Origin: a virus | Taxonomy: Duplodnaviria > Heunggongvirae > Uroviricota > Caudoviricetes | DNA: 8,553 nucleotides | Virus record (IMG/VR): IMGVR_UViG_2617270968_000006 | Reading direction: 5' to 3' (one strand) | Shown: in pieces, positions 1-7,650 of the stretch | Numbering within the stretch: the first letter of the stretch is position 1 | How the letters are laid out: each line of letters begins with the position of its first letter | Made by a program: the position numbers and the translations under genes | The notes under the pieces: model-generated | Told to the model about the DNA's origin: nothing | What the model saw: the letters and a program-made list of their open reading frames with translations, nothing else | Database searches by the model: none

Positions 1-1011
1 TTATAACGTCACTCCGCCTTTTAGTGGATTCAGAGCGACGGCGTTCTGCAGGTAGTCAGGCGCAAGGTGCGCATAGGTCATTGTCTGCTGAATGCTCGCA
101 TGCCCCAGAATCTGTTGCAGTGCAATTATGTTGCCCCCATTCATCATGAAATGGCTTGCGAATGTATGCCGCAGAATGTGGGTTGCCTGATTGGGAGGTA
201 TATCAGGTTTCACTCTGCGTAAAATCCCGCAAAACTTCTCATAATCTACCTTGAACAATTTGGCGCTGGCCTCCTCTTTAACTTTTTTCTCCAGTTCCTC
301 AGAAATCGGCACTGTTCGCTTTTTACCGTTTTTGGTTTTCAGGAAGGTAACCCTGCAACTTGTAATCTGTGCTGGTTTTAGTGTGGCAACTTCCGTCCAC
401 CTTCCTCCAGTGCTCAGACATAAAAGCGCGACAAGTAAGTCATCACCAGTCAAAACATTTAGCAGTTTTTCGATTTCTGCTTTTTCCAGGAACGTCATTT
501 CAGGGTTAGCCTCCGTCAGTGGCGGCAGTCCGTGAATTGGGTGTTGCCCGGAAAATTCATCCAATTGAATTAATTTTGTGAACATGCCGGATAATCGGTA
601 CATGTCGCGGTTTATCGTTGCAGCACTGATGCCATCACGTAGTCGCATGGAGCGATAATCCATCAAAGCCCTTTTGTTCATCCGACTCACTGGTATATCA
701 CCTATGCCGCTGATGGTTTTGAGCAGATGATTAAACTCTTTTGTCCCATGCTCGTGGTTTTGCCCGTGGTATTTCCACCAGATGTCGAGCAATTCTGTCA
801 AAGTTCGGCGGTCTGCTCGCTGGCCTCCCCATTCTTTCTGACTGGCATTGGCGATTGTGTATCGCTCAAATGCTAGTGCTTCAGCTTTTCTTTCAAATTT
901 CCTGCGGATGCGTTTTCCGTCGCGACCGCGAGGTCTAATGTCCACTTCATAGCGACCATCATCGAGCTTCTTAATTGCCATAAGAAAGCCCTCCGGCGCT
1001 GTATTCACCAT
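1..1011 (-). CDS. int: Tyrosine site-specific recombinase (P2-type integrase), 336 aa, complete; stop codon at 1..3
   Basis: ATG at 1009-1011 (minus) to TAA at 1-3. C-terminal region has the HxxR motif (HILRHTF) and a likely catalytic Tyr (TMTYAHL); basic N-terminal arm-binding-like domain. Size matches P2 Int (about 337 aa, from memory). Confidence 0.9.
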   Translation of the reverse strand: MVNTAPEGFLMAIKKLDDGRYEVDIRPRGRDGKRIRRKFERKAEALAFERYTIANASQKEWGGQRADRRTLTELLDIWWKYHGQNHEHGTKEFNHLLKTISGIGDIPVSRMNKRALMDYRSMRLRDGISAATINRDMYRLSGMFTKLIQLDEFSGQHPIHGLPPLTEANPEMTFLEKAEIEKLLNVLTGDDLLVALLCLSTGGRWTEVATLKPAQITSCRVTFLKTKNGKKRTVPISEELEKKVKEEASAKLFKVDYEKFCGILRRVKPDIPPNQATHILRHTFASHFMMNGGNIIALQQILGHASIQQTMTYAHLAPDYLQNAVALNPLKGGVTL

Positions 1012-1050
1012 CTTGGTGGCAAATGGTGAAAATGTAATTTTTATATAGAG

Positions 1051-1344
1051 TTAGCCAATCCTTTTCGCGGAGTGGTTGGATTCTGTTGACTCTGGCCCAC
1101 TGTGCGCGAGAGACGGTGCGATTTGTCCCGCTTCCGGCGCTGTTTTATCTGTCATGAGCCATAGTGTGTATTTTTGGAACTGAGGTGCATTGGTGACCTG
1201 CAACACAACTTGGATGCCAGGGTCTTGATGGCCTCCTTCGTAATTCTTTAGCGTTCCTAACGCTATGCCGCTGATTTCACTGAATTTTGCTTGAGTTAGC
1301 CCTTCCGATTGTCTTATTGCTCTTAATTTCTGTGCGATATTCAT
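1051..1344 (-). CDS. C: P2 C-type immunity repressor homolog, 97 aa (internal start of the 158-aa track ORF)
   Basis: Translation MNIAQKLRAIRQSEGLTQAKFSEISGIALGTLKNYEGG... has an N-terminal HTH and a C-terminal segment (QFQKYTLWLMTDKTAPEAGQIAPSLAHSG) strongly reminiscent of P2 C. Sits immediately upstream of and co-oriented with int, as in P2. Start chosen at ATG 1342-1344 because the longer form would overlap the divergent promoter region. Confidence 0.8.
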   Translation of the reverse strand: MNIAQKLRAIRQSEGLTQAKFSEISGIALGTLKNYEGGHQDPGIQVVLQVTNAPQFQKYTLWLMTDKTAPEAGQIAPSLAHSGPESTESNHSAKRIG

Positions 1345-1374
1345 TTGACATAGTCCTGACTTAATGACTATATT
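1345..1374 (+). promoter_or_regulatory. Candidate early promoter (Pe-like) driving cox-B-A: -35 TTGACA (1345-1350), 18-bp spacer, -10 TATATT (1369-1374)
   Basis: Consensus -35 hexamer and near-consensus -10 read directly from the sequence, positioned between the repressor start and cox. Confidence 0.45.
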
Positions 1375-1409
1375 CCCCGAAAAGGTCATTAATCCAGAAC
1401 CTTTTCGGG
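1361..1409. promoter_or_regulatory. Nested inverted repeats in the switch region: TTAATGAC (1361-1368) / GTCATTAA (1385-1392) flanking the -10, and CCCGAAAAGGT (1376-1386) / ACCTTTTCGGG (1399-1409); candidate operator(s) or leader RNA hairpin
   Basis: Perfect 8-bp and 11-bp inverted repeats seen directly in the sequence, overlapping the candidate Pe -10 and transcript start. Confidence 0.4.
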
Positions 1410-1479
1410 CGTGAGTCCAGCGCCGCTTAAACGGTTCCAAGCGGTTTTTAAGGGGCTGGATCCTATGAGGGTAACATAG

Positions 1480-1752
1480 ATGGAAGTTAATGATTATGTG
1501 ATTAAGTACCCGCTTGATGCGGTACATGCGGAAAAGTTTGCAGATTTATTGGGTAAACCAAAAACCGCAGTTACAGAAATGATAAAGGCTAACAAGCTAC
1601 CGGTTATCGAGCTTCGAGATCCAAATAAGCCGAAGGCCCGCGCCGGTGAGAAATGGGTTTTCATTCCAGAGTTTAATCGCGCTGTACGTGAGGCGTTTTA
1701 TAACCGACCGGTTGAACAGCGTGATGCATGGCTTTTGTGGATGGGGTTGTGA
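1480..1752 (+). CDS. cox: Cox-like excisionase / early repressor of lysogenic promoter, 90 aa
   Basis: First gene of the rightward operon. Translation carries KLPVIEL.DP...RAGEKWVFIPEFN...RDAWLLWMGL, which resembles my recollection of P2 Cox. GAGGG RBS 8 nt upstream of ATG 1480. Confidence 0.75.
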   Translation: MEVNDYVIKYPLDAVHAEKFADLLGKPKTAVTEMIKANKLPVIELRDPNKPKARAGEKWVFIPEFNRAVREAFYNRPVEQRDAWLLWMGL

Positions 1753-1754
1753 TT

Positions 1755-1925
1755 ATGAATGAGCCGCGTTGTATTGCGCAGTTACTGCGTAACGAAAGCC
1801 CCAGGGCGATTGACTTCACCATCACCCACGGGAAGGGACGCAAGGGAATCATTATCCGCACCAAAAAACAGAGTCCGTTAAAAAAGGCTCTGACCTTTCT
1901 GAAAAGCCGGAGGGTATGGAAATGA
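1755..1925 (+). CDS. Small hypothetical protein, 56 aa, in the position of P2 orf78
   Basis: ATG at 1755 three nt after the cox stop; basic small protein; assignment by synteny only. Confidence 0.5.
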   Translation: MNEPRCIAQLLRNESPRAIDFTITHGKGRKGIIIRTKKQSPLKKALTFLKSRRVWK

Positions 1926-2422
1926 CAGTGATGACGCTCAATCTCGTTGAAAAACAGCCAGCAGCTATGCGCCGGATAATTGGTAAGCATCTGGCCGTCC
2001 CTCGCTGGCAGGATACATGTGATTATTATAATCAGATGATGGAGCGCGAACGGCTAACAGTTTGCTTTCATGCGCAGTTAAAACAACGTCACGCAACGAT
2101 GCGTTTTGAAGAAATGAACGACGTCGAACGTGAACGACTGGTATGTGCAATTGATGAATTGCGTGGGGCATTCTCAAAACGCCGTCAGGTTGGCGCAAGT
2201 GAGTATGCATATATTAGTTTTTTAACAGTCAGTCAGCGTCGTACTTTATTTATGCATGCCGGATTGACTGAAAAAGAATTCAACCAGCCATACTGGCGAA
2301 TTAATGAAGAATCATGTTACTGGCGTGATGCTTTATTCCGTGCATTACGTGAATTATTCAGCCTGTTTGAGTATGCACCGACAATTCTGACGTCGGTAAA
2401 ACCAGAGCAATATCTGCATTAA
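1922..2422 (+). CDS. B: P2 B-like replication protein (DnaB helicase loader family), 166 aa
   Basis: Position between cox/orf78 and the small-ORF cluster, and a length equal to P2 B (166 aa when started at ATG 1922, 7 nt after a GGAGGG RBS). Start overlaps the orf78 stop (ATGA). Confidence 0.7.
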   Translation: MTVMTLNLVEKQPAAMRRIIGKHLAVPRWQDTCDYYNQMMERERLTVCFHAQLKQRHATMRFEEMNDVERERLVCAIDELRGAFSKRRQVGASEYAYISFLTVSQRRTLFMHAGLTEKEFNQPYWRINEESCYWRDALFRALRELFSLFEYAPTILTSVKPEQYLH

Positions 2423-2485
2423 GTAATTAACCAGAGTTTTTAACGCACTTAATTGTGCGGGGCTTCTTTTTGCCTGGAGAAAGTC

Positions 2486-2710
2486 ATGCATACAGTTTCT
2501 GAAAATCAGTGCGGTAAATACGCATTACTGCTGCAACAGGCCAGAACCGAAGCACAGGCCGATGCAGCGACGCGCTTTTCTTCTCATCTTGACGCCATGA
2601 TTCGACACATCACAAAGGCGGAGTTATCCCGCGTGGAGATAGTCGAGCTGCTCAGTCAGGAGTCGGAAAAATTTCACAATATCGGATTGTCTCGCGGGGA
2701 GGTGCTTTGA
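2486..2710 (+). CDS. Small hypothetical early protein, 74 aa (P2 orf80 position)
   Basis: GGAGAAAG RBS then ATG at 2486; stop TGA 2708-2710 overlaps the next start (TGATG). Function unknown. Confidence 0.5.
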
Positions 2711-3012
2711 TGTCCTGTTCTCGTTCGGTTGTATTACTGAATAACGCCTTAAAAATCGCCGTTATGAAAAATGGCGATTTATCTCTTATTCAACTTGGTC
2801 TTGATAAAGAAAAACGCGAAATAACTGAGTCTGTTATCGCGATTTATCAGAATGAATTAAATATCCTGTCTGATGTGGTCAATTTACTTGTTAAACGCGC
2901 TGTATTTCACAAGCAAATCTCCTCCGTGGATGAACTGACGAAATTAACGACAGAAATTGCCAGCTATTGCGCTGATGAATTTAAAAAACTTAACGACAAA
3001 AGGAGCTGGTAA
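2710..3012 (+). CDS. Small hypothetical early protein, 100 aa (P2 orf81 position)
   Basis: ATG at 2710 overlapping the upstream stop; stop TAA 3010-3012 overlaps the next ATG (TAATG). No recognisable motif. Confidence 0.5.
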   Translation: MSCSRSVVLLNNALKIAVMKNGDLSLIQLGLDKEKREITESVIAIYQNELNILSDVVNLLVKRAVFHKQISSVDELTKLTTEIASYCADEFKKLNDKRSW

Positions 3013-3236
3013 TGCCGGACAACGTGGATTTTATTCAGGAACAACAGGCTGAATTACTGGAGCGTCAGATTAACGCGGCAAGGGTAAAACATTGCGGTGC
3101 TTCTGCGCTGGTTTGCGAAGAGTGTGACGCGCCAATACCTGCTGCCCGTCGTGCGGCTTATCCGTCAGCCACGCGTTGTGTTTCCTGTCAGTCAGTCTTT
3201 GAAGCAAAAAACAAACATTACCGGAGAACGGCATGA
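3012..3236 (+). CDS. TraR/DksA-family C4 zinc-finger protein, 74 aa (P2 orf82 position)
   Basis: AAAGGAG RBS before ATG 3012. Translation contains CEEC-x17-CVSC, the CxxC-x17-CxxC spacing characteristic of DksA/TraR zinc fingers. Confidence 0.7.
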   Translation: MPDNVDFIQEQQAELLERQINAARVKHCGASALVCEECDAPIPAARRAAYPSATRCVSCQSVFEAKNKHYRRTA

Positions 3237-3508
3237 GTATTCGTATTGAAATTGGCGAACGTTATGTCGTTACCAGTGACAGCTTTCAGTTTATTCTCCA
3301 CGAGAAAAAGAGAGCGGAAAGCGGTAAAAACGCCGGTCAGGAATGGCTGGCGGTGGTTGGTTATTGCCCGAAATTAAGCCAGCTCGTTTCCGGCCTGATG
3401 CATCACGATATTCTGACCGGAAGCGCAAAGTCTTTTGCTGATTTAAACGCGCAGGTTGAGCAACTCAGCAGGCGTTGTTCAGAGGCTTTGGGCTCATATG
3501 GCCGTTAA
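3233..3508 (+). CDS. Small hypothetical early protein, 91 aa (P2 orf83 position)
   Basis: ATG 3233 overlaps the orf82 stop (ATGA); its own stop overlaps the start of A by about 11 nt. Confidence 0.5.
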   Translation: MSIRIEIGERYVVTSDSFQFILHEKKRAESGKNAGQEWLAVVGYCPKLSQLVSGLMHHDILTGSAKSFADLNAQVEQLSRRCSEALGSYGR

Positions 3509-5735
3509 AGCCTCCGGGCGTTTTGTCCCTCCGTCAGCATATGCCGCAGGCACCGGTAAGACGTTTACCGGTGCTTATGCATGGAACGCGCCACGCGAGG
3601 CTGTCGGGCGCGAAAGACCCCTTACACGTGACGAGATGCGTCAGGTGCAAGGTGTTTTATCCACGATTAACCGCCTGCCTTACTTTTTACGCTCGCTGTT
3701 TACTTCACGCTATGACTACATCCGGCGCAATAAAAGCCCGGTGCACGGGTTTTATTTCCTCACATCCACTTTTCAGCGTCGTTTATGGCCGCGCATTGAG
3801 CGTGTGAATCAGCGCCATGAAATGAACACCGACGCGTCGTTGCTGTTTCTGGCAGAGCGTGACCACTATGCGCGCCTGCCGGGAATGAATGACAAGGAGC
3901 TGAAAAAGTTTGCTGCCCGTATCTCATCGCAGCTTTTCATGATGTATGAGGAACTCTGCGATGCCTGGGTTGATGCACATGGCGAAAAAGAATCGCTGTT
4001 TACGGATGAGGCGCAGGCTCACCTCTATGGTCATGTTGCTGGCGCTGCATGTGCTTTCAATATTTCCCCGCTCTACTGGAAAAAATACCGTAAAGGACAG
4101 ATGACCACGAGGCAGGCATATTCTGCCATTGCCCGCCTGTTTAACGATGAGTGGTGGACTCATCAGCTTAAAGGCCAGCGTATGCGCTGGCATGAGGCGT
4201 TACTGATTGCTGTCGGGGAGGTCAATAAAGACCGTTCTCCTTATGCCAGTAAACATGCCATTCGGGATGTGCGTGCACGCCGCCAGGCAAATCTGGAATT
4301 TCTTAAATCGTGTGACCTTGAAAACAGGGAAACCGGCGAGCGCATCGACCTTATCAGTAAGGTGATGGGCAGTATTTCTAATCCTGAAATTCGCCGGATG
4401 GAGCTGATGAACACCATCGCTGGAATTGAGCGTTACGCCGCCGCAGAGGGTGATGTGGGGATGTTTATCACGCTGACCGCGCCGTCAAAGTATCACCCGA
4501 CTCGTCAGGTCAGAAAAGGCGAAAGTAAAACCGTTCAGCTTAATCACGGCTGGAACGATGAGGCATTTAATCCAAAGGATGCGCAGCGTTATCTCTGCCG
4601 TATCTGGAGCCTGATGCGCACGGCATTCAAGGATAATGATTTACAGGTCTACGGTTTGCGTGTCGTCGAGCCACACCACGACGGAACGCCGCACTGGCAT
4701 ATGATGCTTTTTTGTAATCCACGCCAGCGCAACCAGATTATCGAAATCATGCGTCGCTATGCGCTCAAAGAGGATGGCGACGAAAGAGGAGCCGCGCGAA
4801 ACCGTTTTCAGGCAAAACACCTTAACCGGGGCGGTGCTGCGGGATATATCGCGAAATACATTTCAAAAAACATCGACGGCTATGCACTGGATGGTCAGCT
4901 CGATAATGATACCGGTAGGCCGCTGAAAGACACAGCTGCGGCTGTTACCGCATGGGCGTCAACGTGGCGCATTCCGCAATTTAAAACGGTTGGCCTGCCG
5001 ACAATGGGGGCTTACCGTGAACTACGCAAATTGCCTCGCGGCGTCAGCATTGCTGATGAGTTTGACGAGCGCGTCGAGGCTGCACGCGCCGCTGCAGACA
5101 GTGGTGATTTTGCGTTGTATATCAGCGCGCAGGGCGGGGCAAATGTCCCGCGCGATTGTCAGACTGTCAGGGTCGCCCGTAGCCCGTCGGATGACGTTAA
5201 CGAGTACGAGGAAGAAGTCGAGAGAGTGGTCGGCATTTACGCGCCGCATCTCGGCGCGCGTCATATTCATATCACCAGAACGACGGACTGGCGCATTGTG
5301 CCGAAAGTTCCGGTCGTTGAGCCTTTGACTTTAAAAAGCGGCATCGCCGCGCCTCGGAGTCCTGTCAATAACTGTGGAAAGCTCACCGGTGGTGATACTT
5401 CGTTACCGGCTCCCACATCTTCTGAGCACGCCGCAGCAGTGCTAAATCTGGTTGAAGACGGTGTTATCGAATGGAATGACCCGGAGGTCGTGAGGACGCT
5501 CAGGGGTGCATTAAAACACGGCCTGAGAACACCAAATCGTCAGCAAAGAAACGGAATCCCGTTAAAACCGCATGAAATTGCACCATCTGCCAGACTGACC
5601 AGGTCTGAACGATTGCAAATTACCCGTAGCGGATATCGCGCGCGGCGGGATAGAACGAGCGAACGAGCTGGAACACGCCGACACCGAGGCCGGTGGCATC
5701 AATTCCGATGTATTCGACGTTGTATTTTTCGGTGA
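3498..5735 (+). CDS. A: P2 A-like rolling-circle replication initiator (HUH endonuclease), C-terminally disrupted: native sequence appears to end near 5625 and the last ~35 codons read through into antisense terminase DNA
   Basis: Start MAVKASGRFVPP at ATG 3498. HUH motif PHWHMML (HWH codons 4692-4700) and a YIAKYISK double-tyrosine motif (Tyr codons 4845-4847 and 4857-4859), as in phiX174/P2 A proteins. Tail SGYRARRDRTSERAGTRRHRGRW is arginine-rich junk overlapping the minus-strand P fragment. Confidence 0.85.
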   Translation: MAVKASGRFVPPSAYAAGTGKTFTGAYAWNAPREAVGRERPLTRDEMRQVQGVLSTINRLPYFLRSLFTSRYDYIRRNKSPVHGFYFLTSTFQRRLWPRIERVNQRHEMNTDASLLFLAERDHYARLPGMNDKELKKFAARISSQLFMMYEELCDAWVDAHGEKESLFTDEAQAHLYGHVAGAACAFNISPLYWKKYRKGQMTTRQAYSAIARLFNDEWWTHQLKGQRMRWHEALLIAVGEVNKDRSPYASKHAIRDVRARRQANLEFLKSCDLENRETGERIDLISKVMGSISNPEIRRMELMNTIAGIERYAAAEGDVGMFITLTAPSKYHPTRQVRKGESKTVQLNHGWNDEAFNPKDAQRYLCRIWSLMRTAFKDNDLQVYGLRVVEPHHDGTPHWHMMLFCNPRQRNQIIEIMRRYALKEDGDERGAARNRFQAKHLNRGGAAGYIAKYISKNIDGYALDGQLDNDTGRPLKDTAAAVTAWASTWRIPQFKTVGLPTMGAYRELRKLPRGVSIADEFDERVEAARAAADSGDFALYISAQGGANVPRDCQTVRVARSPSDDVNEYEEEVERVVGIYAPHLGARHIHITRTTDWRIVPKVPVVEPLTLKSGIAAPRSPVNNCGKLTGGDTSLPAPTSSEHAAAVLNLVEDGVIEWNDPEVVRTLRGALKHGLRTPNRQQRNGIPLKPHEIAPSARLTRSERLQITRSGYRARRDRTSERAGTRRHRGRWHQFRCIRRCIFR

Positions 5736-6180
5736 GTTTGCGGATGGATTCAGCCTGGGTGGCAAAGTCCATGCCTTTCCACTGGTGACGCTCAAGTATT
5801 CTGAATTTGCCACCGGCCACCACCGGCGGTGCCAGTACCACGCATCCGGCGCTGTCGCCACGGTGTGACGGGTCGTAACCAATCCATACCGGGCGGGATC
5901 CGAACGGATTGGCGGCAAACGGCGCATAGTCTTCCCATTCTTCCAGCGTGTCGACCATGCAGCGTTGCAGCTCCTCGAACGGGAACACCGACGCCTTGTC
6001 GTCAACAAATTCACACATGAACAGGTTTTTAAAATCGTCGGCGCTGTTTTCGCGTTTAAGCTGCTCAATGTCGAACAGCGTGCAGCCACCTTTCAGGGCG
6101 TCCTCAATGGTGACAATCTGCCGCCACTGGCCGTCCGCACAGAGAAGCCCACCGGCAAGGGCGTTATGTCCCGCCGACAC
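5620..6180 (-). pseudogene. Fragment (about 186 codons) of terminase large subunit (P2 gpP-like), nuclease-domain region; N-terminal ATPase portion deleted
   Basis: Translation contains WIGYDPSHRGDSAGCVVLAPP and EYIGIDATGLGVGV, typical acidic-residue motifs of the terminase RNase-H-like nuclease domain. Minus-strand orientation relative to A matches P2, where Q and P are transcribed opposite to A. Far too short for a terminase. Confidence 0.7.
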
Positions 6181-6185
6181 CGGCC

Positions 6186-6746
6186 GTGATGGAATCTGAC
6201 ACCGATTATCGTCTGCGTATTCAGCAGGCCTTTGAAGGTTTAAGCGTCGCCGGGTCGGTGGGTGCCTATCAGTATCATGGTCGCAGTGCTGACGGGCGTG
6301 TCGCGGATATCTCTGTCACCAGTCCGTCTCCGGCCTGCGTCACCATCTCTGTGCTGTCACGTGAAAATAACGGTGTCGCATCCGAAGACCTGCTGGCGGT
6401 GGTGCGTAACGCCCTTAATGGCGAGGACGTCAGGCCGGTGGCCGACCGCGTGACCGTGCAGTCTGCCGCCATCGTTGAATATCAGATAAACGCCACGCTT
6501 TACCTTTACCCTGGTCCCGAAAGCGAACCCATTCGCGCTGCCGCTGTGAAAAAGCTGGAAGCGTATATCACGGCACAGCACCGGCTGGGGCGCGACATCC
6601 GTTTGTCTGCCATTTATGCCGCTTTGCATGTGGAAGGCGTGCAGCGTGTCGAGCTGGCCGCACCACTGGCCGACATTGTGCTCAACAGTACGCAGGCGTC
6701 TTTCTGTACCGAATACCGCGTCGTGACCGGAGGCTCGGATGAGTGA
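6186..6746 (+). pseudogene. C-terminal fragment (about 186 aa) of baseplate assembly protein J-like; 5' part deleted
   Basis: Directly followed by an overlapping ATGAGTGA junction with the gpI start, as for J/I in P2; abuts the terminase fragment with no intervening genes. Confidence 0.65.
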
Positions 6747-6903
6747 TTCGCGACTGCTGCCGACTGGCTCATCACCGCTTGAAGTTGCCGCCGCAAAAGC
6801 CTGTGCGGAAATTGAAAAAACGCCGGTCAGTATTCGTGAGCTGTGGAACCCGGATACCTGCCCGGCAAATCTGCTGCCGTGGCTGGCGTGGTCATTTTCG
6901 GTT
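6739..6903 (+). pseudogene. N-terminal fragment (about 55 aa) of baseplate protein I-like; remainder deleted
   Basis: MSDSRLLPTGSSPLEVAAAKACAEIEKTPVSIRELWNPDTCPANLLPWLAW matches my recollection of the P2 gpI N-terminus; the frame then degenerates and terminates at 6966. Confidence 0.6.
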
Positions 6904-6939
6904 GGCGGAGTTCTCCATCAGCCTGGCTACCGGTCGGGC

Positions 6940-7114
6940 AGATATTTACACGGAAACACCGGTTAAAGTGTCAGGCTTTAAGCGCGTCATAGACGAGCAG
7001 GACTGGACAATCACTAAGGTGACACATTTTCTGAATAATAGCGGCTTCACGACGTCCTTGGAGCTTGAGGTCAGGCTTTCTGATGTGGAGTACGAAACAG
7101 AAGATGATGAGTGA
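6940..7114 (+). pseudogene. C-terminal fragment of tail protein D-like (last ~60 aa), ending with an acidic tail EYETEDDE immediately upstream of ogr
   Basis: Different reading frame from the I fragment; position immediately upstream of ogr matches P2 gene order (D-ogr). Start of homology is approximate. Confidence 0.55.
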
Positions 7115-7195
7115 TGTTTTTGTTTTATCTGTTTGTTTTATAAGGATAAATTAACTAAAATGGCACCATCAACAAAACCGGAAGAGGTGCTCGCG

Positions 7196-7414
7196 ATGTT
7201 TCATTGTCCTTTATGCCAGCATGCCGCACATGCGCGTACAAGCCGCTATATCACTGACACGACAAAAGAGCGTTATCACCAGTGTCAGAACGTGAATTGC
7301 AGCGCCACGTTCATCACCTATGAGTCGGTACAGAGATACATCGTGAAGCCGGGAGAAGTCCACGCCGTAAGGCCGCACCCGTTGCCGTCAGGGCAGCAAA
7401 TTATGTGGATGTGA
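7196..7414 (+). CDS. ogr: Ogr late-gene transcription activator (zinc-finger), 72 aa, intact
   Basis: MFHCPLCQHAAHARTSRYITDTTKERYHQCQNVNCSATFITYESVQRYIVKPGEVHAVRPHPLPSGQQIMWM corresponds to P2 Ogr as I recall it, with Cys4 motif CPLC...CQNVNC. GAAGAGG RBS before ATG 7196. Confidence 0.9.
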   Translation: MFHCPLCQHAAHARTSRYITDTTKERYHQCQNVNCSATFITYESVQRYIVKPGEVHAVRPHPLPSGQQIMWM

Positions 7415-7424
7415 TCACAAAAAT

Positions 7425-7450
7425 AGCCCCTCAGTTGAGGGGCTTTATTT
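7425..7450 (+). terminator. Rho-independent terminator after ogr
   Basis: Stem AGCCCCTC (7425-7432), loop AGTT, GAGGGGCT (7437-7444), followed by TTTATTT. Confidence 0.7.
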
Positions 7451-7457
7451 ATGGTCG

Positions 7458-7476
7458 ATGTGGACGCTATGTGGAC
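7458..7476 (+). repeat. Two direct repeats ATGTGGAC (7458-7465 and 7469-7476); candidate integrase arm-type binding sites of the att P-arm
   Basis: Direct repeats seen in the sequence; they resemble my recollection of the P2 Int arm-site consensus (TGTGGACA-like) and sit where the P arm should be (just after ogr). A third similar copy, ATGTGGAT, lies at the ogr 3' end (7403-7410). Confidence 0.5.
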
Positions 7477-7542
7477 AGCGGTTGACATAAATCCATTTAT
7501 ATCATCAGGTTAGGTGCTTTTTTGTGACACCATCCCTGTCTT

Positions 7543-7569
7543 CCCCCACATGCTGTGGGGGTTTTTTTT
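7543..7569 (+). terminator. Rho-independent terminator-like hairpin; possibly the 3' end of the host gene at the att core
   Basis: Stem CCCCCACA (7543-7550), loop TGC, TGTGGGGG (7554-7561), then T8 (7562-7569). Confidence 0.65.
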
Positions 7570-7597
7570 ATCCTCAATTTGCCTGCTGCTTAATGCA

Positions 7598-7624
7598 TTG
7601 CAGATGATTTGCTTCCGTTATACT
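7598..7624 (+). promoter_or_regulatory. Weak candidate fieF promoter: -35 TTGCAG (7598-7603), -10 TATACT (7619-7624), 15-bp spacer
   Basis: Hexamer matches only; spacer is suboptimal. Confidence 0.3.
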
Positions 7625-7650
7625 AGCGTCAGTTGATAGCGGGAGTATTT

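Follow-up and report, generated by a model that had tools for sequence, protein, structure and literature searches.

A 7.7-kb P2-like prophage remnant between cpxP and fieF of Escherichia coli, with early genes and ogr intact and virion genes lost to three deletions

Defective relatives of phage P2 that keep an early region or an ogr gene have been met before in Escherichia coli. In K-12, the ogrK-D' remnant is likewise a decayed P2-like element in which a functional-looking ogr lies beside a fragment of gene D, and Slettan et al., writing in J Bacteriol in 1992, are said to have found the cryptic ogr copies of K-12 and B functional. E. coli B carries a defective P2-like prophage, which we take to be the source of P2 Hy dis; in strain REL606 this prophage also retains the early region with int, C, cox, B and A, and ogr beside a D fragment. 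The REL606 element has been named P2*B and placed at cyaR, with nothing at cpxP-fieF in B, and the same source lists a prophage of the W-phi type (Wphi1) at cpxP-fieF in E. coli W (PMC3032704). Here we describe a further element of this kind, found in the IMG/VR virus record IMGVR_UViG_2617270968_000006, a stretch of 8,553 nucleotides (nt) that we refer to as the window. Positions 1-7572 of the window belong to a P2-like prophage remnant of 7.7 kb, with cpxP on one side and fieF on the other. The element belongs to the P2 family (Peduovirus) and is a defective prophage with a W-phi-type integrase and an uncommon immunity class; as such it is an ordinary, if new, case of a known kind, the cryptic or defective P2-like prophage. 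Very probably, it was shaped by three internal deletions through illegitimate recombination, in a decay recent enough that its genes are intact without demonstrable selection.

The whole window was recovered with 0 mismatches over 8553 nt at positions 6504-15056 of contig JNMA01000015.1 of assembly GCA_000700185.1 (L004), where cpxA-cpxR-cpxP lie to its left and fieF-pfkA to its right. The fieF gene in the window is 100% identical to E. coli fieF, and the host is therefore E. coli. Since the int stop codon forms the very start of the window, attL must lie just outside it, 116-162 nt away. BLAST of the window against P2 (NC_001895) resolves the element into a colinear early operon followed by late fragments, which bears out its preliminary description as a P2-like remnant. 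Positions 1754-5628 correspond to P2 26290-30164, with 97.4% nucleotide identity over 3875 nt, and span orf78, B, orf80-83 and the first 2131 nt of A. They are followed by an inner part of the terminase gene P (5626-6168, P2 1500-2042, minus strand), by J from amino acid (aa) 111 to its end together with aa 1-55 of I (6169-6902, P2 11623-12356), and by a final segment with D from aa 318 to its end, ogr, the terminator and the P arm (6905-7504, P2 23745-24342). The early operon has the order cox-orf78-B-orf80-83-A, as in P2, and its proteins are 95-100% identical. C and Cox face each other across a Pe candidate that is close to consensus, and int lies downstream of C.

On the P2 map, the surviving pieces are separated by three gaps of 4.9, 9.6 and 11.4 kb, in total about 25.9 kb. 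The first gap took the 3' end of A, the accessory hotspot of orf91/tin/old, cos, Q and the ends of P; the second took O through W, all lysis genes included; the third took H, G, the Z/fun hotspot and FI through U. Compared with the prophages of the E. coli 4/4 type and with phage P37, the window thus stands without the 3' end of A, the accessory hotspot, cos, Q and most of P, and also without O-W, most of J and I, H-U and most of D. A search of the window for the cos sequence gave no match, and the late-promoter regions (P/O, V, F) were likewise all absent from it; all four late promoters and both accessory hotspots went with the three deletions. Virion genes survive only as dead pieces of P, J, I and D. 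The loss of about 25 kb including cos in three deletions, and of every virion gene, had been proposed from the sequence at the outset, and both points stand.

At the first junction (5626-5628) there is a 3-bp microhomology, GTA; at the second (6168/6169) there is no homology, and at the third (6902-6905) there are 0-2 bp. No insertion sequence is present at any of the three. Junction homology of 0-3 bp in the absence of insertion sequences is the signature of illegitimate recombination. It might be argued that the deletions arose in silico, for example by collapse between two P2-like prophages during assembly, and the locus was indeed hard to assemble, being split over two overlapping contigs in GCA_000700205.1. 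However, one contig of 134.8 kb spans the locus from cpxP to fieF and contains the window without a mismatch, all three junctions are found also in this second NCBI assembly, and they appear again in an independently built Logan contig (SRR1186493_84, L010), which equals window 5354-7552 with 100% identity. All three junctions thus recur in independent assemblies, which argues that they are not an assembly artefact, and we regard such an origin as highly improbable.

The question is then whether the surviving genes have been kept by selection. Gene integrity was judged by tblastn with the proteins of P2 and of the prophage of E. coli 4/4 (NZ_CP023826), which was used as an apparently intact relative and which occupies the same attachment site. 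For Int, Cox, B and the products of orf78, orf80, orf81 and orf82, identity to the 4/4 proteins is 100% from end to end, with no gap; C (99%) and the orf83 product (98%) are likewise full length and gapless. Control genes, most replication genes and ogr are intact by these full-length, ungapped alignments, as had been claimed; the early genes have no frameshifts or premature stops relative to the 4/4 prophage, and the region belongs to the P2 family. The further claim of the preliminary description, that this pattern speaks for selective retention over random decay, is unsupported, given the near-identity to 4/4, the equally undamaged fragments and the rarity of the lineage. From int to orf83 the window differs from the 4/4 prophage at 10 of 3508 nt, with zero differences in int and cox, and over window 1-5628 it differs at 49 of 5628 nt (99.1% identity), 39 of them within A. 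With so little divergence, no broken frame is expected even under neutrality. Moreover, the P', J', I' and D' fragments, about 1.5 kb that cannot be functional, are 98-99% identical in protein to P2 and show no stop or frameshift relative to it by tblastn. Since these dead fragments are as free of damage as the early genes, the intact frames are no sign of selection.

The distribution of the remnant also bears on the question. We sought the three junctions in 5426 complete E. coli genomes, and none of these genomes (0/5426) shares any of them. The junction-specific fusion open reading frames (ORFs), A' and I', occur only in GCA_000700185.1, GCA_000700205.1 and the SRR1186493 Logan contig, all of which are 99.95-100% identical to the window. 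The 185-aa J' ORF was also tried as a distribution marker and was dropped, being called as well in many intact or otherwise damaged prophages. Only one substitution can be dated after the deletions, an Ala-to-Ser change in codon 78 of C (nt 1113). It is present in the window, and the sister assembly with the same deletions, as well as the relatives, has the ancestral base. The change falls within GQIAPALAH (Gly75-His83), which is invariant in the six other C proteins that we aligned and is described as strictly conserved in the C family (PMC2995052). This is a single event and possibly a sequencing error; as it stands, it points to relaxed rather than purifying constraint. A test of retention by the ratio of nonsynonymous to synonymous changes (dN/dS) was judged uninformative, since divergence after the deletions amounts to one substitution and the differences from relatives mostly arose while both lineages were live phages.

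Several observations weigh against decay without selection. Among six independent remnants, five (the window, 26561, GmF046, H2 and REL606, the exception being Res13) retain int through orf83, and all six retain ogr, although the comparison is biased in that four of the five comparison remnants were found through their similarity to the window. We also computed a geometric null, in which three deletions as large as those observed were set at random (Dirichlet placement) in a 33.6-kb prophage, with the surviving 7.7 kb in four pieces. Under this null, int-to-orf83 falls wholly in the left piece and ogr in the right one with a probability of (1 - 4074/7697)^3, or ~0.10. That chance alone would spare these genes in about 10% of cases is one of the grounds on which retention is unsupported, yet the value is also low enough to allow for some selection, for instance against loss of C while A and the origin remain.

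With these points in mind, one may consider that the remnant is domesticated, purifying selection having preserved the control and replication half and ogr for a benefit to the host, such as superinfection immunity, supply of Ogr in trans, or a repressor needed to silence A and the origin. That all early ORFs are intact, that other independent remnants retain the same genes and that the geometric null reaches only ~0.10 would all fit such a role, as would the remnant of Res13, which lost C, cox and B and also has a truncated A, in agreement with a rule by which a working A calls for C. On the other side, the window has diverged too little from the apparently intact relative for whole genes to tell us anything, the dead fragments show no more damage than the genes, the remnant is restricted to one rare lineage, and the comparison remnants are biased by the way in which they were found. 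Domestication usually pays through the defence and accessory hotspots, and here both were deleted; such hotspots are reportedly retained by defective P2-like elements. The immunity class occurs in only 40 of 5426 genomes, so that any protection would be narrow, and the sole change after the deletions is nonsynonymous at a strictly conserved residue of C. Selection on the early genes is thus not supported, and we consider domestication unlikely; recent decay through three illegitimate deletions is the reading that we prefer.

The control region of the remnant is not of the P2 type, its Int, C and Cox being 51, 44 and 46% identical in amino acids to those of P2. Int is 100% identical to that of 4/4, 96.9% to that of W-phi and 51.5% to that of P2, and carries the Pfam domains Int_N and Phage_integrase. 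For C, identity falls from 99% (4/4) and 97% (phage P37) to 68% (W-phi), 47% (REL606) and 44% (P2). According to PMC1904268, the heteroimmune phages P2, Hy dis and W-phi have repressors that share 43-63% identity with one another. With only 68% identity to W-phi and 47% to REL606, the immunity class of the remnant probably differs from those of P2, Hy dis and W-phi. The int-C-cox block is 99.7% identical in nucleotides in the isolated Yersinia phage P37, and it is found at an identity of at least 99% in 40 of the 5426 complete E. coli genomes. W-phi itself (NC_005056) resembles the window in Int (96.9%), in the early replication genes (96-99%) and in Ogr (100%), but differs in C (68%) and Cox (86%) and, as a phage, is complete and viable. 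Next to cpxP, 788 of the 5426 genomes have a P2-like int, and on the fieF side 611 have ogr; the cpxP-fieF site is a hotspot for P2-like integration.

It had also been suggested that the window could be the defective P2-like prophage of E. coli B from which P2 Hy dis derives. A general resemblance exists, as the REL606 prophage also retains int, C, cox, B, A and ogr. However, in REL606 cpxP lies directly next to fieF and the site is empty, which refutes the identity, and its own element lies between yegQ and yegR, measures ~22 kb and has other deletions (Q to S and FII to D). The REL606 Int is 99% identical to P2 Int, whereas its Int, C and Cox are only 51, 47 and 50% identical to those of the window, and unlike the window the REL606 element retains many tail genes. 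The proposed identity is almost certainly wrong. The hotspot beside A in the REL606 prophage (L023 27707-31398) holds a four-gene accessory module annotated as ABC-three component system proteins and an AAA ATPase.

Four other remnants at cpxP-fieF (26561, GmF046, Res13-Lact-PEB01-20 and H2) have likewise lost the late morphogenesis and lysis block and retained ogr. They differ from the window in that each carries one large deletion from P/O to D/ogr, with endpoints that vary between them, and in that all have Q; the window has no junction in common with any of the four. Three of them retain int through A, and Res13-Lact-PEB01-20 has lost most of int, C, cox and B and part of A. Accessory genes stand beside A in three of the four, with annotations as a helicase, a methyltransferase with a restriction enzyme, and an exonuclease with a HIRAN-domain protein. 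In P37 and in the remnants 26561 and Res13, an extra hypothetical gene of 408-642 nt lies between the ogr terminator and the P arm (L021 19260-19767, L002 16006-16647 and L025 14041-14682), and it is absent from the window at 7453/7454. This interval looks like a third small slot for accessory genes in such phages.

The features of the remnant are collected in Table 1. The Pe candidate abuts the start codon of C, in the same position as the Pe annotated in P2, and the product of orf82 is a zinc finger protein of the TraR/DksA type. The truncated A' retains 710 of about 755-761 residues and is 98.3% identical over residues 1-710. Its Phage_GPA nuclease domain (aa 133-462) is complete by Pfam, but A' is without the C-terminal ~50 aa (51), including a motif, WELEALARGA, whose conservation extends to the divergent A of REL606. 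Judged from this sequence, A' is likely impaired through the loss of its conserved C-terminus. The origin region matches P2 29852-29932 at 80 of 81 nt, including the annotated nick site at 29892.

Table 1. Coordinates of the features of the remnant in the window
Feature	Position	Strand	Remarks
int (tyrosine integrase, 326 aa; alternative ATG at 1011 gives 336 aa)	1-981	-	W-phi type
C (immunity repressor, 97 aa)	1051-1344	-	HTH_3; minority immunity class
Pe, early promoter candidate	1345-1374	+	TTGACA, 18-nt spacer, TATATT; 11/12 consensus matches
cox (excisionase, repressor of Pc; 90 aa)	1480-1752	+	Pfam Phage_Cox; 100% to 4/4, 85.7% to W-phi
orf78	1755-1925	+	100% to P2 Orf78
B (replication, lagging-strand synthesis)	1922-2422	+	99.4% to P2 B, full length; Pfam Phage_RepB
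orf80 (2486-2710), orf81 (2710-3012), orf82 (3012-3236), orf83 (3233-3508)	2486-3508	+	95-100% to P2, gapless, full length
A' (truncated replication endonuclease)	3498-5735	+	A residues 1-710, then 35 antisense-P' codons
Replication origin region	5316-5396	+	Inside A gene; P2 nick-site equivalent ~5356
P' (terminase large subunit fragment, aa 314-498)	5626-6168	-	BLAST, tblastn
J' (baseplate, aa 111 to end; to 6746) and I' (aa 1-55; 6739-6902)	6169-6902	+	BLAST, tblastn
D' (tail protein D, last 71 aa)	6905-7114	+	98.6% to P2 D aa 318-388
ogr promoter equivalent	~7133-7162		Inferred from P2 annotation and alignment
ogr (late-gene activator, 72 aa)	7196-7414	+	100% aa identity to P2 Ogr; Pfam Ogr_Delta
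Terminator hairpin of ogr/F operon	7425-7444	+	Equals P2 terminator 24265-24288
P-arm Int sites (predicted)	7459-7476	+	TGTGGAC twice (7459-7465, 7470-7476); aligns with P2 P arm
attR core (47 bp)	7526-7572	+	Phage-borne copy of cpxP terminator hairpin; alignment and direct repeat

Both attachment sites can be recognised. Alignment of the empty site of REL606 (L007 45804-45951) with attL and attR places the core at the terminator hairpin of the cpxP 3' end. The attL core (L004 6342-6388) is identical to attB, and the attR core differs from attL and attB at one base of the loop (7553). TGTGGAC arm-type repeats are found at both ends of the element, beside ogr and beside int in attL. At attL the native sequence is restored, and the terminator of the host cpxP is thereby preserved. 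The small RNA CpxQ arises from the cpxP 3' region (PMC4817254), and by position the core probably overlaps the CpxQ terminator; an Rfam scan of the window and of L004 at gathering thresholds found nothing in the window and no match to a CpxQ model. A 40-codon ORF called in the public record at 7514-7636 runs across the attR core and is pieced together from flank of the P arm, the terminator hairpin and the leader of fieF. Pfam gave no match for this ORF, which is most likely spurious.

As Int, Cox, attL and attR are all present, the 7.7-kb element has whatever excision is known to require and is, from its sequence, probably still excisable. One may therefore outline how it would behave. C, expressed from Pc, would repress Pe and so keep Cox, B and A' silent, and it would confer immunity only to phages of the same rare class. 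Upon derepression, Int and Cox would excise a 7.7-kb circle that could be neither packaged, having no cos, nor released by lysis, and that would probably replicate poorly since its A is without the conserved C-terminus. With nothing left in the element for it to act on, Ogr could work solely in trans, its targets then being those of a P2-like phage that enters the cell or of a P4-like satellite. In the excised circle the order of genes would be D'-ogr-attP-int-C-cox-B-A', as in the phage, so that a P2-like phage entering the cell could acquire the immunity and integration module through a double crossover. P2 Hy dis presumably arose in this manner, by transfer of such a module from the prophage of E. 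coli B.

Taken further, these steps would make of the remnant an active mini-element that excises and re-integrates by its own Int and Cox, serves superinfecting P2-like phages as a reservoir of modules and provides immunity to one class. Active excision and re-integration could also explain why the two contigs of the sister assembly break at the att core. In GCA_000700205.1, one contig extends from cpxP across attL and stops 43 nt short of the attR core, and the other, which begins precisely with the first base of an attL-type core, continues through the remnant to fieF (L005 1-170 and L006 13926-13985). The Logan contig ends one base before the core mismatch at 7553 and begins 2 nt from the equivalent of the origin nick. 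Contig breaks at the att core could reflect a tandem copy, reads from an excised circle (attP) or the behaviour of assemblers at a short repeat, and we hold an active mini-element to be quite unlikely.

A related idea is that of a satellite-like mini-element packaged and spread by a helper P2-like phage. The presence of int, cox, an origin, B and an activator of the Ogr/Delta type loosely resembles the gene set of P4-type satellites. However, the remnant has no cos sequence and no genes for capsid size or for manipulation of a helper; its ORFs are without exception those of P2, whole or in pieces. In all its parts it matches the DNA of ordinary P2-like phages with 94-100% identity and bears deletion scars, and the distribution is that of one lineage. 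A satellite lifestyle is thus very unlikely indeed, and we return to the defective prophage in recent decay.

As such, the remnant offers a clean example of how a P2-like prophage decays step by step, here at an attachment site that is very common. It also advises caution in genome scans: intact reading frames in a remnant are no evidence of selection where a near-identical intact relative exists and the dead fragments are just as undamaged. If excision or donation of the module were to prove true, the element would be a convenient natural system for the swapping of immunity and integration modules among P2-like phages, a process already known in principle.

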